In this document: piece by piece, positions 10,570 through 41,651 of the stretch
Numbering within the stretch: position 1 is the stretch's first letter
How the letters are laid out: each line of letters begins with the position of its first letter
The notes under the pieces: generated by a model
What the model was told of the DNA's origin: nothing
Seen by the model: only the letters and a program-made list of their open reading frames with translations
The model's database searches: none
Program-made: the position numbers and the translations under genes
DNA from: a virus
Lineage: Duplodnaviria; Caudoviricetes
IMG/VR virus record: IMGVR_UViG_3300037400_006508
Span: 79,526 to 143,525 of that record
DNA: 64,000 nt
Direction: 5' to 3' (one strand)

Positions 10570-11052
10570 ATGGCGTCCACCTTTTCATCCGTGATACAGC
10601 TTCTCCTGTCCGTGTTCGACTTCATAAGGGGCCGGTCGGACAGGAAGCGGAAAAGGCTTGACGTGCTGGAGGACAGGATAAAGGCGATCCAGCGCGATAT
10701 TGCAAAAGCCCTGGAAGATGGTAGAATAACCGACGTAGCCACCCTGAGGATGGAGTTGGACGGATTGAAGAAGGAGTACGACAAGCTTGGAGGAAAACGC
10801 GCATCGGTGGCCGCCGCCACCGGCATGCTTCTTTTTTTAGCCATTACGCCGTTTTTGTCCGGATGCTTTTCGACCAGGTCGGATCCGTCGACCCCGTATG
10901 TGGTCGTCGGCGAGAGGATCATAATACTGGAGCCCGGTTCCGAGCTCGTTGTTCCGGAACTGGTTCCTCCGGCGAAGAAATGGTACCTGATAGACAACAT
11001 AGGCCTTCAGGTCGGACTTGGCATACCGATGTTACTGGAGAACGACAGATGA
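10570..11052 (+). CDS. putative lipoprotein/spanin-like protein with internal lipobox
   Basis: N-terminal helix and coiled coil, then KR + hydrophobic stretch + FLSG-C lipobox, then a short Pro-rich tail. Confidence 0.5.
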   Translation: MASTFSSVIQLLLSVFDFIRGRSDRKRKRLDVLEDRIKAIQRDIAKALEDGRITDVATLRMELDGLKKEYDKLGGKRASVAAATGMLLFLAITPFLSGCFSTRSDPSTPYVVVGERIIILEPGSELVVPELVPPAKKWYLIDNIGLQVGLGIPMLLENDR

Positions 11053-11405
11053 AGGACTTTTCCGGGCTTCTCAAGATCGCCGGTGTCGGATACTCGCCCA
11101 CGGTGGGCGACTTCATGAACAGATGGAACGGCGACATCAACGCGAATCCGTTCCAGAGGAGCGACGCGTTCAGCCGGATCAACAACGCCGGGCTCGACGT
11201 CAAGCAGCCGGCATCCAGGATACCGTATGTCCTTGGCGGCGGCGTTCTTGGAAGGGCCGCGGCATCATACCTGGGGGCCAATCCGTTCTGGAAGAACGTA
11301 GCCACGGTAGGCGGGGCCATGGTCGGAAATTCCATTTACAAGAAGAACAATCCGGATCCAAGGGCGATGCCGGTCGCACCAGGAGTGATAAGGAGAGGTT
11401 GGTAG
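11049..11405 (+). CDS. small glycine-zipper membrane protein with KxA leader
   Basis: ATG at 11049 (ATGA overlap). MKDFSGLLKIAG; YVLGGGVLGRAAASYLG...VGGAMVG. Confidence 0.7.
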   Translation: MKDFSGLLKIAGVGYSPTVGDFMNRWNGDINANPFQRSDAFSRINNAGLDVKQPASRIPYVLGGGVLGRAAASYLGANPFWKNVATVGGAMVGNSIYKKNNPDPRAMPVAPGVIRRGW

Positions 11406-11765
11406 ATGTACAGGATAAACGAGTTCTTGACCCCCAGGGAGAGGGCCGAGGCGATAAGGGTCGGCGCTCTTCGCAAACTTGCTTCTTTGGGCATGACGCC
11501 GTCCGATTTTTCCCGCCAGATGAAAAAATCGGCCCTTGCCGGGGCCGCAGCCGGCGTCGGGGCTGCCGCGGCCGGCAAGATGGCGCCGCTTCTGTCCCCG
11601 AAGACGCTGTTTTCGCTTGCCATCTACCTTGGAATTCCGCTTGGGGCGCTGAGCTACGGCCTAAAGAGCTCGTTCTCCCCGGAGACAAGCGCAAACAGCG
11701 ATCTGAAGACCAAGCTTGACGAGATGAACGACATCGTCGAGCAGTACAGGAGGCAGCTCGGCTAA
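11406..11765 (+). CDS. small membrane protein with KxA leader
   Basis: RKLAS...KKSA followed by LAGAAAGVGAAAAG and TLFSLAIYLGIPLGALSYG. Confidence 0.7.
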   Translation: MYRINEFLTPRERAEAIRVGALRKLASLGMTPSDFSRQMKKSALAGAAAGVGAAAAGKMAPLLSPKTLFSLAIYLGIPLGALSYGLKSSFSPETSANSDLKTKLDEMNDIVEQYRRQLG

Positions 11766-12157
11766 TGAACCAGGGCATGCCGTCGTGGGCCGAGCTGATG
11801 GCCCGTATGCCGAAGTCCTCGGTCTTTCCACAGCCCAGCGAGGTTGCGCACGGGCTTGAGACGATCAAGTACAAGAAGACCCCCGTCGTGGTATCCGAGT
11901 ACCATGTGGAGGTGTTCGACATGGAGTCGAAGAAGGACAGGGAGGACTACTGCAAGCTGATGCTGGACCTTGCGAACAAGGTTCAGAACTCGCAGTGCAT
12001 GATCGGCAGGCAGGAGCTTGAGAAGATGACTTCCAAGGACGGATCCACCACGTGGAAGAGGTATGTTGAGTGGTTCGACTACAAGCTGAACGATACCAGC
12101 ACGACCACGAAGACGGAGGACGAGGAGAAAGATGGAGATGAATCAGAAAATGGCTGA
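11765..12157 (+). CDS. hypothetical protein
   Basis: TAATG-coupled 130-aa ORF with typical codon usage. Confidence 0.65.
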   Translation: MNQGMPSWAELMARMPKSSVFPQPSEVAHGLETIKYKKTPVVVSEYHVEVFDMESKKDREDYCKLMLDLANKVQNSQCMIGRQELEKMTSKDGSTTWKRYVEWFDYKLNDTSTTTKTEDEEKDGDESENG

Positions 12158-14096
12158 GTTGGACACGGCCGCCTGGGCCGAGAGACATCCTGTCCTCGAC
12201 ACGATGGGAAAGGCCGGCCTCACGGGGGCCGGCGTAGCCGCGCTGTCGTCCATCCTGGCTGACTTCATAGAGGCGAGAAGGCAGGCCAAGAAGCAGCGCG
12301 AGCGCGACAAGATGAACAATAGCGAAGACGCCATAGTATTCCATGTGCGCGACGCGTCCGAGAAGGCGGCGGAGGACTGTGTCGGGTCGTGCGATTCGCA
12401 TCCGTGCGAGGATACGAACGTCACCGTCGTTTCCGAGGAGTCCGGAAAGAGCATAAAGTACCAGAACGGATCGGACCAGATGCGGGAGACGAACGGCCGT
12501 TTCTCCGGTTTTGGGAAGAGCGCCGGGGGGTGGGGAGACGTTCCGGTGGACACGTTGAAGATCCTCGGATCCGTCGCGGCGTTCCCCGTCGGGTACATGG
12601 CCGTGTCCAAGATACACGAGAGGATGGAGAGGAACCGCCTCAAGAAGCAGATCGCCGCGGCGCAGCAGGAGTACATAGACCTGCTCGACGGAAGGCGCGA
12701 GGAGAAGACCGCCGAGTTCTGCGACATGTTCATGATGGACGATCCGTATCTCGGTACCGGAATCGTAAAGTCCGCCGAGAAGAACCCGGCCGACTACAAC
12801 GCGCTAGACAGGGCGGCCGCCTGGGTTGGAAACGGTCTGTCCTCCGTCAACAAGGATGCGCAGAACGTTTCAGCAGCCACCCTTGCGGCCGCCCTCCTTA
12901 CTTCGGGAGTGTCCGCATGGGTCGTGCACAAGCTTCTCGCAGAGCGGTTCGACAAGAAGGACAATGACGCGGAGCCGCGCAGGGACATGAAGATCATGTT
13001 CAAGTCCAGTTCCGCGGACGAGCTGGAGATATCGCCGGAGCAGTTCATGGCAACGATAGTCGTGATGCGCGACTGCATAAGGGATTCGAAGCCAATGTCC
13101 AAGGAGGCGCAGTACTATTTCAACCACCCAAAGGCGCAGTATGACGACGAGGCGATGCAGCATGTGCTAAGGACGTACGCCCATGATAATTTGGGCGTTA
13201 AGTACGACAAAGCGAACGATACCGCCCTTCAGGCTAAACTGCTTGTGAGCTCCGGTCTGGCTAAACCAAAGGACATAGTGCGGGCCGCAGTGGACGAAAA
13301 GGAAGCGGCCCGCCTAAAGTCATTGGCTCCGGACGTCAAGGACAGCGTAATGAACTACATGCTGGCCAATCCCGTCGGATGGCTTCGCATGATAGGGGCC
13401 AAGGAGAACAGGGACATCCTGGAGGCTGCAGTAAACAGGGGTATATCCGATATGCAGGGCAAGGGAGGCTTCATAGGAACGTTGATGGGCGTTCCGGTCC
13501 TCGGAGACGTGATGAAAAGCATCATGAGGTGGTACTCCATGAATACGGAGGCCGGAAGGCGCATGGTTGCCAACAGGATGCTGGAAGGCGCCGGCATGAC
13601 GGACGCGGAGGAGAGGAACAGAGTGCTCAGGAACGATATGAATTTCAGCACAGGGTTCAACGCCGCAGATCCTAAGGCGGTAGTCGGATCGCCCATGGCC
13701 GCCAGACCGAAACAGATAGTCGCGCCCCCTCCTCCGCCACAAGTTCAGCCCGGAGCCGGAAACGGCGTGAATCCGCCCGAGATGAAAACAGATCTGGACA
13801 CGGCTGGCGCCGGTCCCGGAATGACGGCAAATGCGTCCGCAGGCATGGGAAAGTCGTCTGGCGTCATCGGAGACATAAAGTCGAACGTCGACTTCTTCGC
13901 GAACATGAAGACCCTTTCCGATATGACGAACAAGGATCTTGGAAGAACTATGAAGAAAACCAAGAAGGGAAAGTCGTCCAAGAACGAGCCGCAGGTCGAA
14001 GTGGACTTCGACAATGTTCTCATGGAGCACCTTACCGACGAGCAGCGCAGGAGGCTGTACGAAATAGCTGCGAGGATAGCGGCCAAGAGGAAGTAG
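12132..14096 (+). CDS. multi-module KxA-punctuated membrane-associated virion protein (putative polyprotein)
   Basis: Three TM-like + coiled-coil modules separated by EKAA, GKSA, EKTA, VKSA and SKEA. Confidence 0.7.
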   Translation: MEMNQKMAELDTAAWAERHPVLDTMGKAGLTGAGVAALSSILADFIEARRQAKKQRERDKMNNSEDAIVFHVRDASEKAAEDCVGSCDSHPCEDTNVTVVSEESGKSIKYQNGSDQMRETNGRFSGFGKSAGGWGDVPVDTLKILGSVAAFPVGYMAVSKIHERMERNRLKKQIAAAQQEYIDLLDGRREEKTAEFCDMFMMDDPYLGTGIVKSAEKNPADYNALDRAAAWVGNGLSSVNKDAQNVSAATLAAALLTSGVSAWVVHKLLAERFDKKDNDAEPRRDMKIMFKSSSADELEISPEQFMATIVVMRDCIRDSKPMSKEAQYYFNHPKAQYDDEAMQHVLRTYAHDNLGVKYDKANDTALQAKLLVSSGLAKPKDIVRAAVDEKEAARLKSLAPDVKDSVMNYMLANPVGWLRMIGAKENRDILEAAVNRGISDMQGKGGFIGTLMGVPVLGDVMKSIMRWYSMNTEAGRRMVANRMLEGAGMTDAEERNRVLRNDMNFSTGFNAADPKAVVGSPMAARPKQIVAPPPPPQVQPGAGNGVNPPEMKTDLDTAGAGPGMTANASAGMGKSSGVIGDIKSNVDFFANMKTLSDMTNKDLGRTMKKTKKGKSSKNEPQVEVDFDNVLMEHLTDEQRRRLYEIAARIAAKRK

Positions 14097-14097
14097 G

Positions 14098-17000
14098 ATG
14101 GCGGACGGCCTTCCAGAGGGACTTCGTGAATTCGACGACGCGAAGGCGACGCGGAAGCTCATTTACGACAATGTGCTTTCCGCGGTGCAGAAGCGTTTTC
14201 CTGTAGAGGACGACAACTACAGGCTCGAGCTCCTCGACGCCAGGTACGGCGGTCCGCAGGAGTATACGCTGGCTCAGCAGAAGAACGCCATCTTGCGCAA
14301 TAGAAACCTAAGGACTCCGATTGTCGGCAAGTGGCGTCTGACGGACAAGAAGACCGGCCAGGTGCTCGACGAACGCGAGGACCAGGTCATGCAGGTCCCG
14401 TACTGGACCGACCGCGGCACCATCATCAACAACGGGTCCGAGTACACGGTCATCACGCAGTCCAGGCTCCGTCCGGGCGTGTACGCCAGGCGCAAGACGA
14501 ACGGAGGCCTGGAGGCGCAGTTCAACATCGATCCAAGGACGGGTCATTCGTTCAGGATAGGCCTGAACCAGCAGACCGGCGTGTTCGACGTATCCGTAGG
14601 GCAGGGCCACATACCTCTGTACCAGGTTCTTCGCGGTCTCGGCGTCGACGACAAGGAGATCATCAGGAACTGGGGCGCGGATCTTACGGCGGCCAATGCG
14701 CAGAAGTCGGATCCGCAGGCGTGGAGGAAGCTCTACGAGCGTATGGCCGGGTACAGGGCGGATCCGAATTTGACCGACGCGGACAGGATGGAGTATGTCA
14801 GGAACGGTCTTACGTCGTATAAGGTCGATCCGGACATCGTCGAGAGGACGATGGGACTCCGCAACGTGTCCGGAGTCACCCCGCAGCTGCTCATGCGTGC
14901 GTCGCAGAAGCTTCTTAACATATCTCGCGGCGACGAGAAGCCGGACAATCGCGACAATCCAAGGTTTTCGGCTTACTACTCGATCGAGGACTTCCTCAAA
15001 GAGCGCGTTGACAAGGATGCTGGTCGTCTCACAAAGTCGCTTCTGTTCAGGGCAAGGAGAAATAGAAACCTGAAGGGAGTCCGCAGGGACGCCCTCGCCC
15101 CGTATGTGGATGCGTTCATCCAGGGATCCGGCCTTGCGATGCCGGGAGAGGAGGCGAATCCGCTCTCCACGCTCGAGCAGATGTCCAGGATATCCAAGTT
15201 CGGCGAAGGAGGAATCCAGTCCGAAGAAGCCGTAACCATGTCCGCCCGCGAGGTGAACGGGGACTACCTCGGGTTCGTAGATCCGGTAGCCGGTCCCGAA
15301 TCGGGCAGGATCGGCGTTGACGTCAGGGCCACCTACCATACGTACAAGGGCAAGGACAACAAGATCTATGGCGAATTCCTGGATGCAAAGACGGGAAAGA
15401 CGGCGTACGTCGACATCGGAACCGCCGCTGACAGAAAGATAGCCTTCCCGGGTCAGGACATGTCGAAGCCGTACGTGTATATCATGAAGGACGGCGTTCC
15501 GCAGATGGCTCCGACGTCGGAAGTGCAGTATATTGTTCCGAACTACGGGCGTGTCGTCGGGTCGAACACCAACATGAATCCGTTTCCGACGGCCGTCCAG
15601 CCGAACAGGCAGTTCTACGCGTCGAAGTTCTGGACGCAGTATCTGCCGCAGGCGAAGGGCGAGGTGCCGTTGGTGGACTCGCTTATGCCGGACGGGAAGC
15701 AGACCTGGAGCGAGTACTACGGCAGGAAGGTCGGAGCCGTCAAGTCCGATGTAGACGGAGTCGTTACGCGTGTCACGGACGACTCGGTCACCATCAAGGA
15801 CAACACGGGCAAGACGCACAAGGTGGAGCTCGTCAAGAATCTTCCGTTCAACAGGCTGTCCGGCATTTCGTTCAGTCCGTCCGTCGAAGTCGGGCAGGAC
15901 GTGAAGTCCGGCGACATGATCGCCCATTCCAACTTCACGGACAAGAAGACCGGTGCGATCAACATGGGCCAGAACCTGCATGCGGCGATCATACCGTACA
16001 GGGGATACTCGTTCGAGGACGCCCACGTCATATCGGAGTCCGCCGCGAAGAGGCTTGCGACGGACAGGCTGTACAGTTTCGACCATGATTCAAGAAACGG
16101 CGTCATACTGGACAAAAAGAAATACATATCCGCGTTTCCGTCCAAGTTCACCAAGGATCAGATAGAGACGCTTGACGACAATGGCCTTGTAAAGCCGGGT
16201 ACGATACTCCACAGGGGAGATCCCATTGTAACTTCTCTCGGGCCAAAGGTTCTTACCTCGTCTGACAAGGCTCTCGGCAAACTGTCCAAGGCGCTGAGGA
16301 ATTCGTATACGGACCGCACGGAGACATGGGAGCACGACTACGAGGGGAAGGTCGTAGACGCCGTAAGGACGGCCGGAGGCGCGAAGGTGAACGTCGTTGC
16401 GCAGCCGCCGGTCAGGGCCGGGGATAAGCTTTCCGGAAGGTTCGGGCTGAAGGGTGTCGTCGGAAAGGTCGTTCCGGACGACGAGATGCCGAGGGACGCC
16501 ACAACGAACCAGCCGTACGACATGCTCATCAATCCGATGGGCTTTCTTTCGCGAGTGGCGCCGGGCCAGATCATGGAGATGGCCATGGGCAAGGTCGCCA
16601 AGGCGACCGGAAAGCAGGTTCGCATACCGCAGCTTCCACCGCCGGAGGGATGGTACGAGTGGACGAAGAACCAGCTTGCTCAGAACAATCTAACGGACTC
16701 GGCCAATGTGTTCGATCCGACCACCGGAAAGACCATAAACAACATAGGCGACGGGTATCTGTTCATATCGGCGTTCCACCATCTGGCCGAGAAGAAGGAG
16801 TCGATGCGGGGCGCCGGAGACGCCGCGTATACGCAGGACGAGCAGCCGGCGAAGGGCGGAAAGACCGGCGCGAAACGTTCGTCCGGCCTGGACAACTGGG
16901 CCATGCTGTCGCATGGGGCCACGGACGTGCTGAAGGACGCCGTTCTGATCAGAGGAACGAGGAACGACAATTATTGGAACTCCCTTAAGCTCGGCCTTCC

Positions 17001-18480
17001 TCTTCCCGAACCGGAATCTCCGTTCATCTACAAGAAGTTTCTCAATACGCTCAGGGCCGGCGGCATCAACGTAGTCGAGAAGGGAAATATCACCAAGATC
17101 ATACCGCAGACCGACAAGGATGTCGAACAGCTCGCGAACGGCCGGGTCATATCGTCGTCCGAGATGGTCGATTCGTCGTTCGATCCCGTAAAGGGCGGTT
17201 TGTTCGATCTTGGAAAGACCGGCGGAATGGCCGGCAACCAGTGGTCGATGATCGAACTTCCGGAGCCGGTTCCGAATCCGATAATGGAGGAGCCGGTCAG
17301 GAGGGTTCTCGGTCTTACCGTGTCCAAGATGGAGGATGTTCTTGCCGGAAGAGAGAAGATCGACGGAAAGACCGGCGGCGAGGCGCTGAAGTCCGCGTTG
17401 GCGAAGGTTGACGTCGACAAGAAGATCGCCGACGCGAAGAGGGACATACTCGGCCAGCGTGGGGCGAAGAGAGACGACGCCGTCAAGGTATATAGGTACC
17501 TGACGGCCATGAAGGAGCAGGGTCTCAGCCCGCAGGATTGGATGGTGTCGAAGGTTCCCGTCATACCGCCTGCGTTCAGGCCGGTGTCCAAGATGGGAGA
17601 CGTAGCCCTTGTGTCCGACATGAACGACCTGTACAAGGACATCATAGAGAACGCGAACAACTTCAGGGAGCTGAAGAAAGACGTTTCCGACGAAGGCGTT
17701 GCCGACGAGAGGATCAATATATACAACTCCGTCAAGGCCGCGTACGGCCTGGGACAGCCGATCACGCCGGAGAACGCCGCAAAGGGCGTCAAGGGCGCAC
17801 TGAGGCAGGTCATCGGGTCGAGTCCGAAGTTCGGACAGTTCCAGTCGAAGGTTCTATCGAAAACGCTCGATAACGTAGGGCGCGGCGTCGTGACGCCGGA
17901 TCCGAATTTGGACATGAACCAGGTTGGAGTTCCGGAGAACATGGCCTGGGAGATGTACAAGCCGTATGTGTTGCGAGGGCTCGTGCGGACGGGATATCCG
18001 TCGGCCACCGCCGTTAAAATGGTCGCCGACAAGACGGATACGGCCAGGCATATACTGGAGAAGGAGATGGAGGAGCGTCCTATCATCATGGATCGCGCCC
18101 CGACGTGGCACAAGTTCAATTTCCTTGCCTTCACTCCGCATATAACGCAGGACGAAACGATACGCGTATGTCCTCTTATAGTAAGCGGGTTCAACATGGA
18201 CTTTGACGGTGACACGGTGAACATGCACGTACCGTCGTCACAGAAGGCGGTTGACCAGGCCAAGCGCATAATGATGCCGTCGGAGAATTTGATTTCTACC
18301 ACCGACCTTTCCTCTCCCATGCACTCCCCGTCGAAGGAGCAGATCTTTGGGCTGTACGCCGCTACGTCGAAGGTGAACCAGAAGCCAGTCAAGGTGTTCA
18401 ACACCGTTTCCGAGGCCAAGAGGGCGTATGCGGCCGGCGAGATAGAGATGAACGACCCGATAGAGATTCTACAGAAATGA
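14098..18480 (+). CDS. rpoB: DNA-directed RNA polymerase, fused beta + N-terminal beta' (RpoB-RpoC1-like)
   Basis: Beta motifs: PYWTDRGTIINNGSE..TQSRLRPGV, NPLS..RIS, GPESGRIG, GYSFEDA, GDKLSGRFGLKGVV, NPMGFLSR, HHLAEKK, WAMLSHGA. Then beta' motifs: GGLFD, IELPEP, VPVIPPAFRP, SDMNDLY, GRGVVTP, DRAPTWH, and catalytic NMDFDGD (18193-18213). Confidence 0.95.
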   Translation: MADGLPEGLREFDDAKATRKLIYDNVLSAVQKRFPVEDDNYRLELLDARYGGPQEYTLAQQKNAILRNRNLRTPIVGKWRLTDKKTGQVLDEREDQVMQVPYWTDRGTIINNGSEYTVITQSRLRPGVYARRKTNGGLEAQFNIDPRTGHSFRIGLNQQTGVFDVSVGQGHIPLYQVLRGLGVDDKEIIRNWGADLTAANAQKSDPQAWRKLYERMAGYRADPNLTDADRMEYVRNGLTSYKVDPDIVERTMGLRNVSGVTPQLLMRASQKLLNISRGDEKPDNRDNPRFSAYYSIEDFLKERVDKDAGRLTKSLLFRARRNRNLKGVRRDALAPYVDAFIQGSGLAMPGEEANPLSTLEQMSRISKFGEGGIQSEEAVTMSAREVNGDYLGFVDPVAGPESGRIGVDVRATYHTYKGKDNKIYGEFLDAKTGKTAYVDIGTAADRKIAFPGQDMSKPYVYIMKDGVPQMAPTSEVQYIVPNYGRVVGSNTNMNPFPTAVQPNRQFYASKFWTQYLPQAKGEVPLVDSLMPDGKQTWSEYYGRKVGAVKSDVDGVVTRVTDDSVTIKDNTGKTHKVELVKNLPFNRLSGISFSPSVEVGQDVKSGDMIAHSNFTDKKTGAINMGQNLHAAIIPYRGYSFEDAHVISESAAKRLATDRLYSFDHDSRNGVILDKKKYISAFPSKFTKDQIETLDDNGLVKPGTILHRGDPIVTSLGPKVLTSSDKALGKLSKALRNSYTDRTETWEHDYEGKVVDAVRTAGGAKVNVVAQPPVRAGDKLSGRFGLKGVVGKVVPDDEMPRDATTNQPYDMLINPMGFLSRVAPGQIMEMAMGKVAKATGKQVRIPQLPPPEGWYEWTKNQLAQNNLTDSANVFDPTTGKTINNIGDGYLFISAFHHLAEKKESMRGAGDAAYTQDEQPAKGGKTGAKRSSGLDNWAMLSHGATDVLKDAVLIRGTRNDNYWNSLKLGLPLPEPESPFIYKKFLNTLRAGGINVVEKGNITKIIPQTDKDVEQLANGRVISSSEMVDSSFDPVKGGLFDLGKTGGMAGNQWSMIELPEPVPNPIMEEPVRRVLGLTVSKMEDVLAGREKIDGKTGGEALKSALAKVDVDKKIADAKRDILGQRGAKRDDAVKVYRYLTAMKEQGLSPQDWMVSKVPVIPPAFRPVSKMGDVALVSDMNDLYKDIIENANNFRELKKDVSDEGVADERINIYNSVKAAYGLGQPITPENAAKGVKGALRQVIGSSPKFGQFQSKVLSKTLDNVGRGVVTPDPNLDMNQVGVPENMAWEMYKPYVLRGLVRTGYPSATAVKMVADKTDTARHILEKEMEERPIIMDRAPTWHKFNFLAFTPHITQDETIRVCPLIVSGFNMDFDGDTVNMHVPSSQKAVDQAKRIMMPSENLISTTDLSSPMHSPSKEQIFGLYAATSKVNQKPVKVFNTVSEAKRAYAAGEIEMNDPIEILQK

Positions 18481-18650
18481 AGAAGTACGATCTTAGTTAC
18501 CATATCTTGTTGAAGATGGCCGGTCTTGAGAAGGACGCATGGCCGTGGAGCAGCCGTGCGCCCGCGTTCGACTATTCCAAGGCGCAGATAGACACGTCGG
18601 TCGGCAACAACGCGTATAGAAGCTTCAACAAAGCGTACGCCGGTGCGTGA
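18477..18650 (+). CDS. 57-aa KxA-type small protein (absent from the supplied ORF track)
   Basis: ATGA overlap with RNAP stop. Translates MKKYDLSYHILLKMAGLEKDAWPWSSRAPAFDYSKAQIDTSVGNNAYRSFNKAYAGA. Fills the gap to the next gene. Confidence 0.65.
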   Translation: MKKYDLSYHILLKMAGLEKDAWPWSSRAPAFDYSKAQIDTSVGNNAYRSFNKAYAGA

Positions 18651-18662
18651 TTGGGGGCTAAA

Positions 18663-19148
18663 ATGACACCATACGAACTTGGTTTTTTGAAAACTGCGCG
18701 GGCCAAGCTGTCTGACAGCGACGTGGAAGCCTTGCGCGAGATGATGGCGCAGCAGAAGGAGAACGCGAGGCAGCGCGAGCTGCGTCGTACCGCAAGGTTC
18801 GACAAGAACCGCAAGGAGCGCGTAAGGGATGCGAAGAACTACATGATGATAATCCTCGGCCTTGCCGGATTCATGGGCGGAAGGCTTGCGGGAGGCGCAA
18901 TCGGAAAGTCGATCGGACAGCCCGGAGACATGACGCACAACAAGGGTGCTCTCATCGGGTCGCTGTCTGGGTTGGTTGCCGGAGGAATAGGCGGACGTTA
19001 CTTCGGAGAAGGGGCAGGAAACAGGACCGCCGACAGGATGGAGCAGATCGAGAAGGACACCGGGATACGAGTCAACGAGCAGGAGACGGAGAACCTGGCC
19101 CGCACGACGAACAACCTGATGCTCTACAACACGTTTTTCAAACACTAG
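18663..19148 (+). CDS. glycine-zipper 2TM protein with MTPYELGFLKTA leader
   Basis: ATG at 18663. Leader matches the family. ILGLAGFMGGRLAGGAIG...GALIGSLSGLVAGGIGG. Confidence 0.75.
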   Translation: MTPYELGFLKTARAKLSDSDVEALREMMAQQKENARQRELRRTARFDKNRKERVRDAKNYMMIILGLAGFMGGRLAGGAIGKSIGQPGDMTHNKGALIGSLSGLVAGGIGGRYFGEGAGNRTADRMEQIEKDTGIRVNEQETENLARTTNNLMLYNTFFKH

Positions 19149-19178
19149 TTGCCTACATCGGCACATTTTTGGTAAAGT
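19149..19178 (+). promoter_or_regulatory. sigma70-like promoter TTGCCT-N18-TAAAGT with extended -10 TGG
   Basis: Intergenic. Followed by AAGGAAGG RBS and ATG at 19205. Confidence 0.55.
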
Positions 19179-19204
19179 AGATGTCAAGCAAGGAAGGACA
19201 CAAC

Positions 19205-19747
19205 ATGTTCGACTACAAAGGATACAAGGAACTTCAGGACGTACTGTCCAAGAAGGCCCAGTTCGTGCCGATGGGCGGAGACCCTGCGGCGGGTGGAATG
19301 CCTCCGGGCGATCCGGCGGCTGGTGGAATGCCTCCGGGCGATCCGGCTGCGATGGGCGGCGCGATGCCTCCTGACGCCGGTGGAATGCCTCCGGTAGATC
19401 CCGCCGCAATGGGAGGAGACCCCATGGCCGGTGGAATGCCGCCGGTGGATCCGGCGATGATGGGAGGGGCGATGCCGCCAGGGGCCGATCCAATGGCCGG
19501 TATGCCCGATCCTGCGGCTGGCGACGTTTCTCCGTCAGGTGAGCCGTACATGAAGATAACGCCGACGCAGCTCAGCAAGCTGTTCAAGCAGTTCGCAGAG
19601 GTGTTCAAGAGCGTGCTTGGAATACAGCAGCCGGCCGGTGCTGCTCCGGCGGCTCCGGCGGCTCCGCAGCAGGATCCTAATCTAGCGGCGAAAGTCACCG
19701 AAGTCGACGCGAAGCTCAATGCTCTAATAAACCAGATCGGAGGTTAA
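19205..19747 (+). CDS. low-complexity Gly/Pro/Met-rich putative internal head protein
   Basis: MFDYKGYKELQDVLSKKAQ, then GGDPAAGGMPP repeats and a short C-terminal coiled coil. Confidence 0.75.
   Translation: MFDYKGYKELQDVLSKKAQFVPMGGDPAAGGMPPGDPAAGGMPPGDPAAMGGAMPPDAGGMPPVDPAAMGGDPMAGGMPPVDPAMMGGAMPPGADPMAGMPDPAAGDVSPSGEPYMKITPTQLSKLFKQFAEVFKSVLGIQQPAGAAPAAPAAPQQDPNLAAKVTEVDAKLNALINQIGG
19271..19522 (+). repeat. degenerate tandem repeat encoding (G)DPAA(M)GGMPP units
   Basis: ggtggaatgcc recurs, two of them as 30-nt units ggtggaatgcctccgggcgatccggc. Confidence 0.85.
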
Positions 19748-19751
19748 TTAC

Positions 19752-20729
19752 ATGAAGAGGGAAAATCTTGTCAAGATCGCATCTGCCGTACGCAGGCGCC
19801 AGTGCAAGAACGCGCTATTGAAGGTTGCGCAGAAGTACAGTTTTACCCCGACTGGCGCCGGGGAAGACACGGATGCAATAGCTGCAGCCAAGGCGGAAGA
19901 ACTCAGGAGGCAGATGATTGATGCCGATGTCGCCGAGGAGAGAGCGCAGGAGGCGGCAAGAAAAGCGCAGGAAGAAGCGGATACCAGGGCTTTTATGCGG
20001 GAACACGAACTGGATAAGATAAAAAGTCCGTGGGATAAACCACAATCAGACTTGTCCGCAAACGCTATTTACGACGTAGATCCGGAGGAACCAATAGACT
20101 GGAATAGTCCGGAGTTCAAGGAGCTTTCAAATCTTACGCCGAATGAAACCGATTGGCCTGTAGGCATCGTTGCCATGGATTCAAATGGCAGGATCAGACC
20201 CACAATGCCAGCGGAGCAGGCCTCCGAGATAGTAAAAAATCTTAATCTTCCAAAACCTGCACCGGAAGCAAAACCTGCCCCTGCAGCAAAACCTGCCCCT
20301 GCAGCAAAACCTGCACCTGCCGCAGCTCCTGCAGCAAAACCTGCACCTGCCGCAGCTCCTGCAGCAAAACCTGCACCTGCCGCAGCTCCTGCAGCAGCAG
20401 CCCCTGCAGCAGCCCCTGCAGCAGCCCCTGCAGCGAAGCCGAATAAGGCGCCGTCTGCCTGGTCGAAGGGCCTGTCGTCAATCAGAAGCGGTCTTTCAGA
20501 CGTAGGAAACGCAATCGGATCTGCAGCCGGATCACCGGTTGGACGCGGAATAGCGGCGGGCGGAGTTGCAGGTGCCGTCCTCCTCGCGCTCAGCGAAATG
20601 AACAAGAAGAAGGAGCGTAGGAATTATCTTCGTAGCGCCATCCTTGGACTTCTTGCCGGCGGAATGTTCGGTGCCGCCGCGGGGCATTATGCCCCAGGGG
20701 CGTTTACCGCCAAGCCAACCACGGCGTAG
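19752..20729 (+). CDS. KxA-leader protein with PAPAAK linker and C-terminal glycine-zipper TM hairpin
   Basis: MKRENLVKIAS...LLKVAQ. AP-rich repeat. GIAAGGVAGAVLLAL...AILGLLAGGMFGAAAG. Confidence 0.75.
   Translation: MKRENLVKIASAVRRRQCKNALLKVAQKYSFTPTGAGEDTDAIAAAKAEELRRQMIDADVAEERAQEAARKAQEEADTRAFMREHELDKIKSPWDKPQSDLSANAIYDVDPEEPIDWNSPEFKELSNLTPNETDWPVGIVAMDSNGRIRPTMPAEQASEIVKNLNLPKPAPEAKPAPAAKPAPAAKPAPAAAPAAKPAPAAAPAAKPAPAAAPAAAAPAAAPAAAPAAKPNKAPSAWSKGLSSIRSGLSDVGNAIGSAAGSPVGRGIAAGGVAGAVLLALSEMNKKKERRNYLRSAILGLLAGGMFGAAAGHYAPGAFTAKPTTA
20255..20436 (+). repeat. tandem repeats encoding (A)KPAPAA / AKPAPAAAPA / APAA
   Basis: gcaaaacctgcccctgca 18-mers, 30-nt gcaaaacctgcacctgccgcagctcctgca units, and 12-nt gcagcccctgca units. 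Confidence 0.9.
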
Positions 20730-20731
20730 AG

Positions 20732-22591
20732 ATGCCGACAACGATCGGCCAGATCTACGTAAATGAAGCCCTTCCTCCGGAGTACCGTGACTACAACAGG
20801 GTCATGGGCGCTCCGGAGATGAAGGGCATTCTGACCGACATAATCAATAACCACCCGGACAAGTACAGGGAGGTATCGGCCGCCCTCATGCGAGCAGGAA
20901 ACAAGTTCGCGTACGAGGGAGGTACGACCCTTAGGCTGTCCGACGTGGCTCCGCCCTTTGACAGAAAGCCGCTGTACGCGTCGATAGAGAAGGCCGAGAA
21001 CGCGATACGTTCATCCAGGCTGTCCGACGACGAGAAGAACGAGCAGCTTAAGTCCCTCTACGAAAAGGCGTACGAAGCCATAAAGGGCGATACGTACGAC
21101 GTGGCTCTTGCCGCCAACAATCCGTTCGCCCTGCAGGTGAAGTCGAAGGCGAGAGGCGACCCAAACCAGTTGTCGGCCATGCTGTCAACGCCAGGCGTGT
21201 ATGCGAACAGCAAGGGCGAGACGATCCCCATGTTCATCAAGCATAGCTACGCGGAGGGGCTTTCACCGGCGGAGATATGGGCCGGAGCGTACGGCGCCAG
21301 ACTAGGAACAGTGTCGACGAAGTTCGCGACGAGGCAGGCCGGAGAGCTTGGAAAGCTCCTTACGTCCGCGTCGATCGATCAGGTAGTTACGGAGGATGAC
21401 TGCGGTACGATCAACGGGATGCCGGCAAGCGTTGACGACAACGACAACATAGGCGCCCTTCTGGCGTCTCCAGCCGGCGGATACGATGCCGGTACGATCA
21501 TAACGAAATCGGTTCTGTCCGATATAAGGAAGTCGGGCGCCACCGACATACTGGTCAGGTCTCCGATAACATGCGGTGCCAAGAACGGGGTATGTTCGCA
21601 TTGCGCCGGGGTCAGGGAGACCGGAGGCCTTCCGCCCGTCGGGTACAACCTCGGTACGAACGCTGCGGCGGCTCTAGCCGAGAGGCTGGCCCAGGGTTCT
21701 TTGAACGTAAAGCACAGCGGAAAGAAGAACAAGGGCGCCGGACAGTACCAGGGGTTCGAGATGATCAAGCGCATGGCGACGGTGCCGAAGAACTATGCGG
21801 ACCGCGCCACCGTTGCCGAGCTGGACGGAACGGTCGACAAGATAGTCAACGCCCCCCAGGGAGGCCATTTCGTAGTAATAGGCGACCAAAAGCACTATGT
21901 TCCTTCCGGGTATGACATTCTGGTCAAGGAGGGCGATTCCGTCGAGGCGGGAGACCAGCTTTCTGATGGGGTCATCAGTCCGGCCGACGCCGTCAGGCTC
22001 AAAGGCATCGGCGAAGGCCGCAGGTACTTTGCGAACAGGTTCACGAAGGCGTTCAGGGATTCGGGCTACGCCGTGAACAGAAGGAACGCCGAGGCCGTCG
22101 CAAAGGCGCTCATAAACAATGTGGTGGTCGAGAGCGAGGACGCCGAGGCGCAGATGCTGCCGGGCGATACCGTCACCTACGGCAGATGGTCATGGGGATA
22201 CAAGCCGCGTCCGAATTCGACGCAGCTGTCGCCGAAGGCGGCGATAGGGCAGTATCTCGAACAGCCGGCCCTTCACTATACGATAGGCACCAGGATCACA
22301 AAGAAGGTCGCGGACGAGCTTACGAAGTTCAAGGTACCGGCCGTGTTGGCGAACAAGTCGGCCGTCGGAGTACGTCCGGAGATGCAGTCCGTCGTGCAGA
22401 CGACAGGAAACACCGACGACTGGATGGCGAGGCTGGGCACCACGTATCTCGGCAAGAGACTGACGGAGGACGTACAGCGCGGCGCCGAGTCCAACGTCCA
22501 TGGGACGAATCCGTACCCCGGTATAGCGAAGGGTACCGAGTTCGGACAATGGGGTTCGCCCGGACACAGGGACGGGCCGTACTATTACTAG
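20732..22591 (+). CDS. rpoC: DNA-directed RNA polymerase beta' C-terminal half (RpoC2-like)
   Basis: KSKARG..QL (SGARG), SYAEGLS..GAYGARLG (bridge helix), EDDCGT, VRSPITC..GVCSHCAG (Zn site), trigger loop AQGSLNVKH, sandwich-barrel hybrid VKEGDSVEAGDQLSDG. Confidence 0.93.
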   Translation: MPTTIGQIYVNEALPPEYRDYNRVMGAPEMKGILTDIINNHPDKYREVSAALMRAGNKFAYEGGTTLRLSDVAPPFDRKPLYASIEKAENAIRSSRLSDDEKNEQLKSLYEKAYEAIKGDTYDVALAANNPFALQVKSKARGDPNQLSAMLSTPGVYANSKGETIPMFIKHSYAEGLSPAEIWAGAYGARLGTVSTKFATRQAGELGKLLTSASIDQVVTEDDCGTINGMPASVDDNDNIGALLASPAGGYDAGTIITKSVLSDIRKSGATDILVRSPITCGAKNGVCSHCAGVRETGGLPPVGYNLGTNAAAALAERLAQGSLNVKHSGKKNKGAGQYQGFEMIKRMATVPKNYADRATVAELDGTVDKIVNAPQGGHFVVIGDQKHYVPSGYDILVKEGDSVEAGDQLSDGVISPADAVRLKGIGEGRRYFANRFTKAFRDSGYAVNRRNAEAVAKALINNVVVESEDAEAQMLPGDTVTYGRWSWGYKPRPNSTQLSPKAAIGQYLEQPALHYTIGTRITKKVADELTKFKVPAVLANKSAVGVRPEMQSVVQTTGNTDDWMARLGTTYLGKRLTEDVQRGAESNVHGTNPYPGIAKGTEFGQWGSPGHRDGPYYY

Positions 22592-22596
22592 GCAAA

Positions 22597-22625
22597 TTGC
22601 AACAAGTTGTTTCTTTTGGTACGAT
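22597..22625 (+). promoter_or_regulatory. sigma70-like promoter TTGCAA-N17-TACGAT with extended -10 TGG
   Basis: AT-rich intergenic gap with canonical spacing. Confidence 0.65.
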
Positions 22626-22650
22626 GAAATAAATCCGAAGGGGATAAGGG

Positions 22651-25146
22651 ATGGCGAATAAATTCAGTTTCAAGTCGCTTCTTGCCGACGACCGGCTTGT
22701 TCCGGATCTGTGGCTTCACAAGGAGGCGCAGGAGCAGCCGGACGAGACGCAGTTCGCGCAGGACTTCGCTAACTTGGCGTTCCAGTTCATGCAGGACAGG
22801 GCGCCGGCCATGATGAAGTACCTTCTGGGCTTCGAGGTCGTGGACCGTGCGGAGAACGGAACGCGTGCCGTCGGTATTTTCGGGTTCAAGATCGACGGGG
22901 ACTATTTCTACGTTCCGGCGTTCTTCCTGAACTCCCAGGTCAAGGGCATCGATTCCATTCTTTCCAAGCGGACCAATTCGTTCGTGCCCCTTACGGAGGA
23001 ATGGATCAACTATATCATCAACAGGAAGGCGAACGAGCTTGGCAAGGAGGCCCCCAAGGAGACAACCGACGGAGACGGCCAGGCCGAGTTCGAGAATCCG
23101 AACTTCGATTTCCTCCGTACGCCGACCGTAGGTCCGCTCGGAGGATACAATTCCAGCTACAAGATAGCGGAGGACAAGTCCCCGTGGACCTTCGCGAAGG
23201 CGTGGGAGGTAATGAAGTCCGGTACCGAGGAGCATATGGAGAAGGACTCGGAGCTCCGCGAGGCGTTCGTCGGATTCTGCTGCGCCGTGAAGGGCGTCAG
23301 GTCGCCTATGCACAAATCCGCTTCTTCCCCGATACAGGAATTCATATCGAAGGTCGGCGGCCCTGCGTCCGAGCGCACGTTCATGCGTTCGCTGAAGAAC
23401 GTCAAGATGGCGAACGCCGCGTTGGAGTTCTACACCGGCCCGGAGGCGTTCCACGTGTCGTCCTACCCGAACCGCGGAAAGGACTGCTACCTTCTACGGA
23501 AGAAGGCCGAGGAGATTTCCGAGAAGGCCCCGAAGGTTGAAATCACCGACGACTCGCAGAGCGAGGAGGAGGCACGCGACGTAATAGAGGACGGATTCAC
23601 GGTGAGAGACAGACGCGACGAGGCGGAGAAGTCCGACGTCGTGTCTACCGACTACGAGAAGTCGTTCCAGAATCCGGACAAGCCAGGCGCGTACGACGTT
23701 CTTGTCACCGGAGGCGTCACGAAGAGGGCCTACGTGTTCGCGGCCGATCGCATGTTCCATCGCGGCGAGCGCGGTACGATGGTCGTCTACTTCCCGGACA
23801 ACAAGCAGGTCATCACGGCCAGGAACCGCGACATCTTCACCGAGGGCGGCTGCCAGGAGGAGATGCAGGACGTGTACGGAAAGGGCAAGGACATACAGGA
23901 CTGCGCCCTTCATGGTAAGTACATCTTCATCGGAAAGAACGGTGTATCCCTTCCCGAGTTCTACGTCAGCAATCTGAAGAGGGACAAGGGCGAGCGTCCT
24001 GTCATTTCCGGCAATTTCGAGTACTTCTCGGATCCAGACTGGCGTCCGGACTTCGACGACGATTTCACCAATTATTGGAAGGGTGACGAGTTCCATCACA
24101 GGAACGGCCTTACGAAGATTCGTCCGTCTGAAATGTCGTTCTGCGATGTAGAGCTTGCTTCGTTCACCGGATCGCCGAAGTTCACCGGAAGTTCGGTCGT
24201 GATGCCGTCCGATTGGAAGGCCCTGCAGGTCGGCGAGATCGAGCGCGGGTGGGACGAGTACGAGCCGATGTCCTCGACCGAGGAGGCGTTGAAGAACAAG
24301 GACAAGGTGACCTACAAGCTGGGTTCGCTTGATTCCCTGTCGTTCGACCTCCGCAAGGAGGGTGCCGCAAGGCTCGATCTACGCTCCGATGACGGTACCA
24401 CGTTCTATTTCAACATGGACAAGGCCCCGTCGTTCACGAGGCCGGTAGGGTACAAGCAGGCCGCGATTTCGCTCGTGACGAAGCTTGGACTCCGTTATCC
24501 GGATGCCAAGAAGCTGCTCAAGACGGCTGCTGTCGAAAGGAAGGCCGTGTGCCTCGTCAAGTTCGCGCAGATGTCTCCTCTGGTCGGTGTTTCGACCGGA
24601 GTACCTACCGAGCAGACGCCGGGCGTCGATCCGTACACGGGAATACCGGCGTACGATCTGCCGTTCATCGACAAGACCACGATGCCGTTCAACGGCGTCG
24701 AGCTTCCTCCGCAGGACAACCCGTACGGCGAGAACCTCGATGGCGAGATCTCGAGGCAGTCCGAGTCCGCAGGAGACGGTCAGGGGGAGGCGGAGTTCGA
24801 CGAGGAAGCCGCAGGACTCGCGCAGGACGCTGCGAAGCTCGGGCAGAAGCATGTGTTCGACAAGGCGGCGATCGGCGGTCTGGCGAAGGTGTACGACACA
24901 GGAGCCGTGATCGACTCCTATATACCGGAGTTCCTGACCGCCGTAGACAGGCTTGGTCGCGTGCTGTTTCTCTACTATTGGAAGCACAACGATTTCATCG
25001 AAAGGTACGGTACGGACGACGTCATCGAGATGGAGGACGTCCTTCGTGGTACCTTCAAGCAACTTGGGAAGCTTACGCTCGACCTCAAAAGGAAAGCCGT
25101 TGGCGGTGGGGATTCGGACGCCAGCATAGACACGATTGGAGCATAA
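22651..25146 (+). CDS. large KxA-rich putative virion (inner head) protein
   Basis: 831 aa with strong high-expression codon bias. HKEAQ, YKIA, HKSA, KKAE, YKQA, LKTA, VKFAQ. Confidence 0.7.
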   Translation: MANKFSFKSLLADDRLVPDLWLHKEAQEQPDETQFAQDFANLAFQFMQDRAPAMMKYLLGFEVVDRAENGTRAVGIFGFKIDGDYFYVPAFFLNSQVKGIDSILSKRTNSFVPLTEEWINYIINRKANELGKEAPKETTDGDGQAEFENPNFDFLRTPTVGPLGGYNSSYKIAEDKSPWTFAKAWEVMKSGTEEHMEKDSELREAFVGFCCAVKGVRSPMHKSASSPIQEFISKVGGPASERTFMRSLKNVKMANAALEFYTGPEAFHVSSYPNRGKDCYLLRKKAEEISEKAPKVEITDDSQSEEEARDVIEDGFTVRDRRDEAEKSDVVSTDYEKSFQNPDKPGAYDVLVTGGVTKRAYVFAADRMFHRGERGTMVVYFPDNKQVITARNRDIFTEGGCQEEMQDVYGKGKDIQDCALHGKYIFIGKNGVSLPEFYVSNLKRDKGERPVISGNFEYFSDPDWRPDFDDDFTNYWKGDEFHHRNGLTKIRPSEMSFCDVELASFTGSPKFTGSSVVMPSDWKALQVGEIERGWDEYEPMSSTEEALKNKDKVTYKLGSLDSLSFDLRKEGAARLDLRSDDGTTFYFNMDKAPSFTRPVGYKQAAISLVTKLGLRYPDAKKLLKTAAVERKAVCLVKFAQMSPLVGVSTGVPTEQTPGVDPYTGIPAYDLPFIDKTTMPFNGVELPPQDNPYGENLDGEISRQSESAGDGQGEAEFDEEAAGLAQDAAKLGQKHVFDKAAIGGLAKVYDTGAVIDSYIPEFLTAVDRLGRVLFLYYWKHNDFIERYGTDDVIEMEDVLRGTFKQLGKLTLDLKRKAVGGGDSDASIDTIGA

Positions 25147-25244
25147 AAGATGACAAGGTACGAACAAGGATTCCTCACCAAGTGCGCTTCGGCCAGAGTT
25201 CCGAAGAACGTAGCCTTCGCCCTTCTGAAGAGGGCGCAGGAAGC
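25146..25244 (+). repeat. direct repeat copy 1 (about 100 nt, leader-coding)
   Basis: Near-identical to 26326-26424 (atgacaaggtacgaacaagg...gccttcgcccttctgaagagggcgcagga). Confidence 0.9.
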
Positions 25245-25938
25245 CGGCTCGCAGGACGCGCAGCTCGGCTCACTGGATCAGGCCGAAAACGATTATCTTA
25301 AGCAACTTGGTAGGATGGAGAGTCTTGGCGAAGTTGATGACGATGGAAGTGGCAGCTCGGTAACTTTAAATCCGTTAGGCCATATATTTATGGACAGAGT
25401 GAAACGCATGGGTCTTACTGGTGGTCAGTACGATCAGCTATCGTATCCAGACGCACTTGCGAATATCCCGTGGAGTAATAAATTCGGACGCACTGTGCAT
25501 AGCGTGGTGGATCCGATTTATAGCGCATTTGTATCAGATCCGCTAGAGAGATCAATAACGAGTCCGAGGATAACGATGGACGAGCTTGAAGCCGCAAGGG
25601 CTGCGCAGGCTGAATGGGGTGCAAATCAGATATTCCCGGCTGGAACGAGGGCCAACAAGAAGATACAGGAGAGCCTTATAAACGCCGGCAGGAAGAATTA
25701 CCAGAATTGGCTTGACTGGGGTACGGGTGCGCCGAGAGACAAGTACGATCCTACAGGAATAGAAGGCATGAATCTTGGTGAACCTCCGGAGCCCGGTGTG
25801 GATTACACCGAGCGGTTTGATTACGGCTCAGGCGTCAATTCTCTTACGCCGAGGAATATCCCGAAGCAGGAACTTCTCAGGCAGTATCAGAATTCAATGG
25901 TAAGAAACGGGTCTGGCAATAGGTCTGGGGTGGCGTGA
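25150..25938 (+). CDS. putative internal head protein, MTxYExGFL-leader family
   Basis: MTRYEQGFLTKCASARVPKNVAFALLKRAQE. Paralogue of 26330..26944. Confidence 0.75.
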   Translation: MTRYEQGFLTKCASARVPKNVAFALLKRAQEAGSQDAQLGSLDQAENDYLKQLGRMESLGEVDDDGSGSSVTLNPLGHIFMDRVKRMGLTGGQYDQLSYPDALANIPWSNKFGRTVHSVVDPIYSAFVSDPLERSITSPRITMDELEAARAAQAEWGANQIFPAGTRANKKIQESLINAGRKNYQNWLDWGTGAPRDKYDPTGIEGMNLGEPPEPGVDYTERFDYGSGVNSLTPRNIPKQELLRQYQNSMVRNGSGNRSGVA

Positions 25939-25939
25939 G

Positions 25940-26311
25940 ATGGACGAAGACGAGAAGCAGGAGAAATTCCGCGAGGAGGTAAGGGAGTTTCTCGCAAGGG
26001 ACAAGTTGACCCTGGATAATCTTGTTATGAGGGTCGACAAGCTTGAGAAGACAGTGGTTCACGGCAATGGCGATCCGCCCCTTACGACTCAGATAGCCGC
26101 CATGCAGGTGCAGATGAACAATTTCAGGGACGAGCTGAAGGAAGTAAAGGACAAGATGGGCAAGCTGGATCAGATGTGCGTTGACGTGGCCAGCATAAAC
26201 GCAAAGCTTACGGCTAGGGCAAGCAGCAATGGCATGTGGATATGGGCGATCATCACGGTAGGAGCCGTAGTTTTGACGCCGATTCTAGAGCATTTCCTGT
26301 TCGGAAAGTAA
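25940..26311 (+). CDS. coiled-coil protein with single C-terminal TM (holin/XhlA-like architecture)
   Basis: LEKTVVHGNG, heptad region, then MWIWAIITVGAVVLTPIL. Confidence 0.55.
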   Translation: MDEDEKQEKFREEVREFLARDKLTLDNLVMRVDKLEKTVVHGNGDPPLTTQIAAMQVQMNNFRDELKEVKDKMGKLDQMCVDVASINAKLTARASSNGMWIWAIITVGAVVLTPILEHFLFGK

Positions 26312-41533: not shown

Positions 41534-41579
41534 GGACCAGATGGCCCGTAGACAGACCATTCGGTTCGTCTAACACGGC

Positions 41580-41611
41580 AAAAAGACCCGGGGTTCGCCC
41601 CGGGTCTTTTT
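41580..41611. terminator. bidirectional rho-independent terminator
   Basis: aaaaagacccgggg-ttcg-ccccgggtcttttt perfect inverted repeat. Confidence 0.93.
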
Positions 41612-41622
41612 GTATCATAAAG

Positions 41623-41651
41623 TTGACTCTATACATGCCATGTGCTAATAT
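41623..41651 (+). promoter_or_regulatory. sigma70-like promoter TTGACT-N17-TAATAT with extended -10 TG
   Basis: Directly after the terminator. AAGGA RBS and ATG at 41672 follow. Confidence 0.7.

Follow-up and report, generated by a model that had tools for sequence, protein, structure and literature searches.

A two-chain RNA polymerase of a 143-kb gut phage, with beta fused to the N-terminal half of beta-prime and a phage-encoded sigma factor

Two Genes Encode the Catalytic Core

The window considered here, that is the whole stretch of 64,000 nucleotides (nt) that was analyzed, comprises bases 79526–143525 of a 143,525-bp IMG/VR virus record (IMGVR_UViG_3300037400_006508), an uncultured phage from a bovine gut metagenome, and CheckV estimates this 143.5-kb genome to be 95% complete. 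The RNA polymerase (RNAP) of the 143-kb phage is two proteins, a fusion of beta with the N-terminal half of beta-prime (beta::beta-prime-N) and a separate C-terminal half of beta-prime (C-half), and the phage encodes its own sigma factor. The two-chain layout is confirmed as real and as the norm of a clade, not peculiar to one genome. Both genes lie on the plus strand, at 14098–18480 (1460 amino acids, aa) and 20732–22591 (619 aa), with 2.25 kb between them, where an earlier reading of the letters without database searches (the original prediction) had placed the two open reading frames (ORFs). Domain mapping with hidden Markov models, which that reading had named as a check, agrees with it, as Pfam puts beta and beta-prime-N in the longer ORF, and in the shorter one it recognizes Rpb1_5.

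In the fused chain the beta domains Rpb2_2, Rpb2_3 and Rpb2_6 (the last at 9.4e-43) are matched at aa 126–920 and the beta-prime domains Rpb1_1 and Rpb1_2 at aa 1135–1393, and the nearest solved-structure relatives of both phage chains are bacterial beta and beta-prime chains. For a finer view both ORFs were aligned, together with their counterparts in the phages Arash and Vibrio D69, with Salmonella RpoB and RpoC. The beta part (aa 1–992) is complete, albeit without SI1, SI2 and another segment of about 45 residues. In its double-psi barrel 'SGRFGLKGVVGKV' aligns with 'AGRHGNKGVISKI', and the conserved 'LKG..GK' lysines are kept, as is the 'RAPTWH' motif of the chain. The equivalent of the flap-tip helix (LTSSDKALGKL, 16252–16284) would be a putative docking site for sigma region 4, as in bacteria. 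The junction (17053–17097) consists of '..RAGGINV' (aa 986–992, nt 17053–17073) followed directly by 'VEKGNITK', so that the beta C-terminus, expected at about 17040–17070, indeed runs into beta-prime and ends at aa 992, nt 17073. The beta-prime part (aa 993–1460) starts at about residue 16 of beta-prime and no linker intervenes. Its N-terminal zinc ribbon (C70, C72, C85 and C88 of E. coli) is deleted and replaced by a short glycine-rich loop (17194–17268), and the whole 1460-aa chain has a single cysteine (aa 1358). The clamp-helix region, which in bacteria is the docking site of sigma region 2, is retained together with the lid/rudder motif (..VPVIPPAFRP) at 17464–17583, and its residues R1125, D1126, A1128 and K1130 are nearly invariant across the family. 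The catalytic DFDGD of the beta-prime double-psi barrel is found at aa 1368–1372 (18199–18213), and the chain ends 88 aa further on, close to the 90 aa of the first estimate.

What is missing from the fused chain is found in the C-half, where alignment locates the bridge helix (aa 188–216), the zinc site (Cys 224, 281, 288 and 291) and the trigger loop (aa 324–352, without SI3), all three as first proposed, and in addition a region-H-like C-terminus. Of the two zinc sites of beta-prime the N-terminal one is thus lost and the second one, with its four cysteines, retained. In Foldseek, an AlphaFold model of the C-half, built from a 24-row alignment (pLDDT 74, pTM 0.62), resembles bacterial beta-prime chains from end to end (E 1.7e-27). 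In E. coli beta-prime the split maps to residues 550–570, approximately, and in TIGR02386, the generic rpoC model, it falls at 535|549; the C-half ORF begins a few residues beyond the end of the fused chain in the alignment. Taken together the catalytic modules are intact, namely both double-psi barrels, the 'LKG..GK' lysines, DFDGD, bridge helix and trigger loop, whereas SI1, SI2, SI3 and the N-terminal zinc ribbon are missing, and the two chains add up to 2079 aa as compared to 2749 aa in Salmonella.

Integrity and Spread of the Fusion

Could the fusion be false, the product of an assembly chimera, of a shifted reading frame or of a stop codon that was overlooked? The layout of this phage comes from one metagenomic assembly only. 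A stop or frameshift at 17040–17120, the outcome that would have spoken for an error, is not found, and independent contigs cross the junction without insertion or deletion: across 16400–17800 a Logan contig from the run that is probably the source shows no difference, and a 151-nt contig from a different study covers 17055–17205 with one substitution and no indel. Moreover, the fusion is found in 269 homologues from many samples and in isolate genomes alike, which leaves an artefact with a negligible probability.

A word-indexed search retrieved 580 proteins homologous to the fused chain at E <= 1e-10, and in an exhaustive search the best 150 representatives of 50%-identity clusters all matched at E <= 2.7e-171. 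All 269 retrieved homologues carry beta and beta-prime-N in one chain and none of the 269 includes the C-half. In an alignment of 42 homologues the junction and the C-terminal end are kept almost free of indels. At least 521 IMG/VR contigs hold a relative, and among isolates the fusion is shared by Salmonella phage Arash and the Vibrio phages D69, D181 and D148 at about 31% identity. Co-occurrence was assessed in 30 contigs of 144–224 kb, ten of them with terminal repeats. All 30 contain the C-half gene, including each of the 20 that are at least 90% complete; 28 have a sigma homologue and none has alpha. The C-half gene abuts the fused gene in one relative, lies about 1 kb off in many, 2.2 kb off in the present phage, 8.6 kb off in an NCBI assembly and 50 kb off in another contig, and whatever the distance it is always a reading frame of its own. 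The break after the catalytic barrel appears to be ancient and obligatory in the clade. The arrangement had been described as unusual and compact; it is real and distinct from known layouts, but not singular, being the norm of a large clade that includes cultured phages.

The chains vary within the family. In relatives including L123, L174 and L150, a large subclade about 38% identical to the present phage, the second zinc site is also lost: 'CG..C..C' is changed to 'VGGPxDGGVYAKDVG', and an acidic insert stands in place of 'DDCGT'. Judged from these sequences, the RNAP of this subclade would hold no structural zinc. In distant relatives the C-half is lengthened by 300–750 aa (L184:1075-5184(-), L185:1289-5008(-) and L186:2318-5074(+)); the extension of L184 contains AAA_18/AAA_33 kinase-like, acylphosphatase-like and DUF5661 domains, and Pfam finds no domain in those of L185 and L186. 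In addition, the fused chain of relative P0229 runs on into an AAA domain. The RNAP chains act as carriers of extra enzymes.

Alpha, Omega and the Phage Sigma Factor

The 143.5-kb genome has no match to alpha (PF01000) or omega (PF01192), which extends to the whole genome what had been noticed for the RNAP region, and no second beta/beta-prime set was found in it. T7-type RNAP (PF00940) likewise had no match in the genome, albeit the control matched nowhere either. Alpha is also missing from the complete genomes of Arash and D69. That the fusion may stand in for alpha-dependent assembly, as the original prediction suggested, is a conjecture. Phage RNAPs that lack alpha and come in more pieces are already known, and the fusion is therefore not needed for independence of alpha (PMC7598289).

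A sigma-70-family factor of 279 aa with regions 2, 3 and 4 is encoded at 52804–53643 (plus strand), 30 kb from the RNAP genes. It is homologous to the virion-associated Gp10 of Arash (phmmer 1.2e-15) and matches Pfam Sigma70_r3 with 42.6 bits at a cut-off of 25.3. NCBIfam sigma models match from region 2 through region 3, and the helix-turn-helix of region 4 is weak; the Pfam model of sigma region 2 has no match anywhere in the genome. The factor has 108 homologues, and a 38-sequence alignment displays conserved blocks that correspond to regions 2, 3 and 4. The original prediction had recognized the RNAP chains correctly but overlooked the sigma gene and the association of the Arash homologues with virions.

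A candidate promoter, identified by match to the consensus only, is TTGCAA-N14-TGGTACGAT at 22597–22625 (plus strand), directly after the C-half gene; the next start codon follows 26 nt further on. Comparable promoter-like sites precede 19181, 41642 and 52804. TGGTANNAT occurs in modest excess on one strand (10 on plus, 2 on minus), in several cases with TTGnnn 14–15 nt upstream. A scan of 11000–26000 for sigma-70 sites yielded fewer sites than shuffled sequences did, and k-mer enrichment in intergenic regions brought up no strong exact motif, with crude gene calls that are noisy in a GC-rich genome. None of the data sets listed as containing the stretch is of RNA.

Comparison with Known Polymerases

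The closest described systems are Arash (OQ632216.1; PMC10585845) and the Vibrio phages D69, D181 and D148, which have the same three parts with fusion and split at the same alignment positions. Arash and D69 also share the deletion of the N-terminal zinc ribbon, the absence of alpha, the syntenic virion genes in the flanks and the clade in the tree. The Arash chains, gp206 (1525 aa) and gp216 (606 aa), are separated by about nine genes, many on the opposite strand, and a SNF2 helicase, also found in virions, directly follows the C-half (PMC10585845); a SNF2 helicase has no match in the present genome. The Arash paper labels the chains 'beta' and 'beta-prime' without mention of a fusion or a split (PMC10585845). 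A beta::beta-prime-N fusion with a separate C-half is not described in the Arash paper (PMC10585845), a review of jumbo-phage RNAPs (PMC7598289), a study in comparative genomics (PMC7824862), the mReC paper (PMC7481178) or a 2026 review of jumbo phages (PMC13282480), nor was it met in further searches of a literature without most subscription journals, and a 2026 review of the alpha subunit mentions neither phages nor fusions (PMC13374769). By megablast the RNAP region has no match in the phage collection.

Full rpoBC fusions occur in Helicobacter and Wolbachia. They are joined at the same point, beta C-terminus to beta-prime N-terminus, and the best NCBIfam matches to the phage chain are the beta/beta-prime fusion models PRK09603 and PRK14844. 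The bacterial fusions however contain the whole of beta-prime (about 2840–2890 model positions) and function together with alpha and omega, whereas the phage chain stops shortly after DFDGD and scores far under the cut-offs of the full-fusion models (323 versus 5372 bits). In cyanobacteria and plastids the linker that follows the catalytic double-psi barrel is likewise the place where beta-prime is divided, into rpoC1 (gamma) and rpoC2, but in cyanobacteria beta is unfused, a giant SI3 insert is present and so are alpha and omega, while in the phage beta is fused and SI3 absent. The suggestion that the phage split lies near the rpoC1/rpoC2 split holds for the linker and not for the exact point, as the phage cut is about 15–20 aligned residues upstream: residue 18, approximately, of the C-half corresponds to residue 1 of RpoC2, and the end of the fused chain falls at position 550 of the gamma model, which has 619 positions.

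The RNAPs of phiKZ and AR9 are also phage-encoded, devoid of alpha and omega and split in beta-prime after the barrel, and one form is found in virions (PMC7598289). These phages have two enzyme sets of 4–5 pieces each, with beta split into 2–3 pieces, no sigma-70-family factor and highly diverged sequences. The present phage has a single set made up of two chains, in which beta is undivided and fused; it has a true sigma, and its subunits are about 30% identical to those of bacteria. Other phages outside the phiKZ group, namely the mReC phages (PMC7481178), Rhizobium phage RHph_Y65 and Cobetia phage Carin-5, have bacterial-like beta and beta-prime that branch outside bacteria, and in Carin-5 sigma adjoins the RNAP genes; in all of these beta and beta-prime are separate and unsplit, and in the tree they lie outside the fused clade. 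The mReC screen of Weinheimer and Aylward (2020) accepted only subunits that were separate, had 800 aa or more and showed the motif NADxDGD (PMC7481178). The mReC lineage has NADxDGD and a T4-type capsid protein (PF07068), the present phage NMDFDGD and a capsid protein (35043–36017) without a Pfam match. IME392 and RP13 have bacterial-like subunits in multiple pieces. Finally, N4 gp50, crAss-like gp66 and the tape-measure-fused RNAP of P23-45 (PMC10770324) follow the same concept, in which the particle brings along an RNAP for pre-early transcription that in some cases is fused to virion modules. These enzymes are single chains, either unrelated or extremely diverged, and a sigma-70-family factor is used by none of them.

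Where do the fused chains come from? In a quick IQ-TREE analysis of beta-prime-N (LG+C20, 79 rows, 382 columns), with long branches and with bacteria sampled from best matches, all fused forms including Arash and D69 make up one clade (SH-aLRT 99), all 36 sampled bacteria another (SH-aLRT 99) that excludes the fused forms, and RHph_Y65, Carin-5, IME392 and RP13 fall outside both. The identity of beta-prime-N to bacteria is a uniform 29–34% over all phyla returned, with no closer lineage, and on this ground a recent capture from a particular bacterial phylum is unsupported. The data fit a single origin of the architecture without recent capture from one phylum.

Genomic Neighborhood and the Link to the Virion

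Three ORFs lie between the two RNAP genes on the plus strand. The first (18651–19148, likely start ATG 18663) encodes a small protein with an 'MTPYELGFL..' leader and a weak Gly-zipper match. It begins 'MTPYELGFLKTA..', and its leader ('MTRYEQGFLTKCA...LLKRA') is common to the ORFs at 6848, 7401, 25150, 26330 and 26964 of the head region, so that the RNAP genes sit among genes of a 'leader + cargo' type. The second and third (19181–20729; 188 and 325 aa) are repeat-rich and lineage-specific. Since none of the three has homologues in the flanks of 80 relatives, they were rejected as conserved subunits and are not counted as parts of the enzyme. In-frame tandem repeats with units of 30 and 57 nt at 19286–19476 and 20251–20434 encode Pro/Ala/Gly-rich repeats, and the 30-nt unit is repeated 3.3 times at 100% identity.

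The flanking genes are syntenic with virion genes of Arash: 22651, the gene after the C-half, corresponds to gp218, 28273 to gp220, 31451 to gp222, 35043 to gp226 (major capsid protein; 27% identity, E 9e-23) and 38380 to gp236 (sheath), and the block also holds a prohead-protease-like gene. The fused gene of Arash and D69 is immediately preceded by the portal gene. The 654-aa ORF at this place in the window (12132–14096) was rejected as portal, having no Pfam or PHROG match, poor Atlas models and a profile-profile probability of 0.4% against the Arash/D69 portal. A homologue of the portal (27% identity with Arash gp204, E 3e-68) is found outside the window, at 68736–70145 of the whole record, which puts it upstream of the RNAP gene by about 24 kb; the roughly 45 kb from portal to capsid consist almost entirely of unannotatable ORFs.

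In Arash particles the fused chain Gp206 is the most-detected protein, with 3516 spectra and 100% coverage, accompanied by Gp216 with 1210 and the sigma factor Gp10 with 467 spectra, and its authors propose a role of the RNAP proteins in early transcription (PMC10585845). Furthermore, among the 269 relatives there are 55 whose fused chain starts with an InPase domain, followed in 6 of the 55 by LysM and tail-lysozyme domains. InPase, LysM and tail-lysozyme domains are typical of packaged, injected polyvalent proteins, and Iyer et al. proposed that InPase removes pyrophosphate and thereby aids early transcription (PMC5512222).

A Packaged, Sigma-Dependent Polymerase?

How might the two-chain RNAP act? 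As a phage sigma was found and the Arash homologues are abundant in virions, the likeliest reading is a sigma-dependent RNAP without alpha and omega that is packaged and injected, and we consider this reading rather better than even. Its parts differ in strength. The two chains very probably form an active core, this core probably uses the phage sigma, and, by analogy to Arash, packaging in the virion is on balance to be expected. The two genes would provide the catalytic core of the only RNAP of the phage, a minimal enzyme of bacterial type. Promoters would be recognized by the phage sigma, docked on the retained clamp helices and flap tip. Core and sigma, as Arash homology and gene position suggest, would be made late, packed into the head and injected with the DNA. 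Being injected, the RNAP would make early transcription independent of host RNAP, and the same enzyme would serve the whole infection cycle. The tether between beta and beta-prime would fix their stoichiometry and might aid assembly without alpha. A bolder version, in our view rather doubtful, has a clade of 140–220 kb phages from gut, marine and soil-type samples fully independent of host transcription through an injected, self-assembling two-chain RNAP with sigma. In this clade the tether would replace the alpha dimer, the enzyme would be the smallest natural sigma-dependent multisubunit RNAP, zinc-free in some relatives, and the lineage would have split off before the sampled bacterial phyla diverged.

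Several points weigh against such a packaged, self-sufficient enzyme, and some of them favor rivals. The virion evidence is from Arash only, about 31% identical, and reaches the present phage through synteny alone; the Arash authors grant that proteins abundant during infection might contaminate virion preparations (PMC10585845). The shared leader of the neighboring small proteins is on neither RNAP chain, and the present genome has no homologues of InPase, LysM or lysozyme and no such extension on its fused chain. The chains may, moreover, recruit host alpha, the sigma-70-like sites before late genes could equally serve host RNAP, and the deep placement in the tree is tentative, given its long branches and best-match bacteria. 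It could be imagined that the enzyme is a middle or late RNAP, made after host RNAP has read the early genes, and that its presence in Arash virions is carry-over, which would go along with the missing InPase/LysM/lysozyme module and with Carin-5, where sigma, beta-prime and beta stand in a block of replication type. The RNAP genes of the present phage, however, lie inside the late structural block and not with early or replication genes, and an RNAP made late and left unpackaged would find little left to transcribe. In addition, Gp206 tops all Arash virion proteins at full coverage and relatives join the fused chain to domains typical of injected proteins, so that a non-virion enzyme, although the strongest of the rivals, is unlikely. 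Processing is common among head proteins of large phages, and the fused chain could accordingly be a precursor, cleaved at the junction or close to it by a protease such as the prohead protease, to give separate mature beta and beta-prime-N. The junction is short and conserved and continues the bacterial fold, with neither a linker nor a recognizable cleavage motif, and the natural Helicobacter and Wolbachia fusions are joined at the same point; cleavage is thus very improbable.

A different objection concerns sigma, which might serve the host core, as phage sigmas do in phages that lack an RNAP of their own; the two-chain enzyme would then initiate with some other factor or without any. A 2026 review describes phage multisubunit RNAPs as devoid of sigma homologues and assigns phage sigmas to redirecting host RNAP (PMC13282480), and the sigma gene is distant from the RNAP genes. 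Complex prediction of sigma with aa 1000–1460 of the fused chain gave a score of 0.60, as compared to 0.01 for the best of three controls, with runs agreeing in at least 50% of contacts and a partner pLDDT of at least 62. Of 80 solved complexes 58 reach the mark for a pass, and of 110 mismatched pairs 2 do; only 7 of the 80, but both of these mismatches, reached it at 0.60 or under, and the predicted binding was graded as 'weak support'. As sigma with beta-prime is a textbook pair, the pass may also reflect likeness to solved structures. Set against a sigma for the host core are the gap between this score and the controls, the conserved clamp-helix residues and flap tip, the company of sigma and fused RNAP in 28 of the 30 long relatives, and the Arash virions, which hold sigma together with both chains. 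We therefore regard a sigma devoted to the host core as improbable, more so than a non-virion enzyme, and retain the phage sigma as the probable partner of the two-chain RNAP.

Implications

Phage multisubunit RNAPs have been summarized as lacking alpha, omega and sigma, with phage sigmas tied to hijackers of the host core (PMC13282480, PMC7598289). The family described here breaks that dichotomy by combining in one genome a phage core and a true sigma-70-family factor without alpha. The two chains and sigma total about 2360 aa, and the cultured members, Arash on Salmonella and the D69 type on Vibrio, open three questions to experiment: how a core of bacterial type assembles without alpha and omega, what the N-terminal zinc ribbon and the lineage inserts serve for, and why breaks in beta-prime after the catalytic barrel recur. 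Being compact, the family is also of interest as a candidate orthogonal transcription system that could be programmed through sigma. Because it is abundant, with at least 521 IMG/VR contigs, many uncultured phages may resist defenses or drugs that act via host RNAP.

Further Observations

At 48757–48858 of the whole record, outside the window, a 111-aa open frame contains a sub-threshold sigma region-4-like helix-turn-helix (E 5e-4) and could encode a second small sigma-like protein or another DNA-binding protein. Within the window a strong hairpin resembling an intrinsic terminator (GACCCGGGG..CCCCGGGTC then TTTTTG) lies at 41560–41605, and directly 3' of it a promoter-like site TTGACT-N14-TGCTAATAT stands before the 803-aa ORF at 41642. 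Many homologues of the RNAP chains are interrupted by inteins (Intein_splicing, LAGLIDADG), from one to three of them, whether in beta, in beta-prime-N or in the C-half, as seen in P0029, P0004, P0125, P0171 and P0239 and in G008, G023 and G024, with chains of up to 3038 aa. In D181 and D148, two of the Vibrio phages, the RNAP gene region includes a homing endonuclease.

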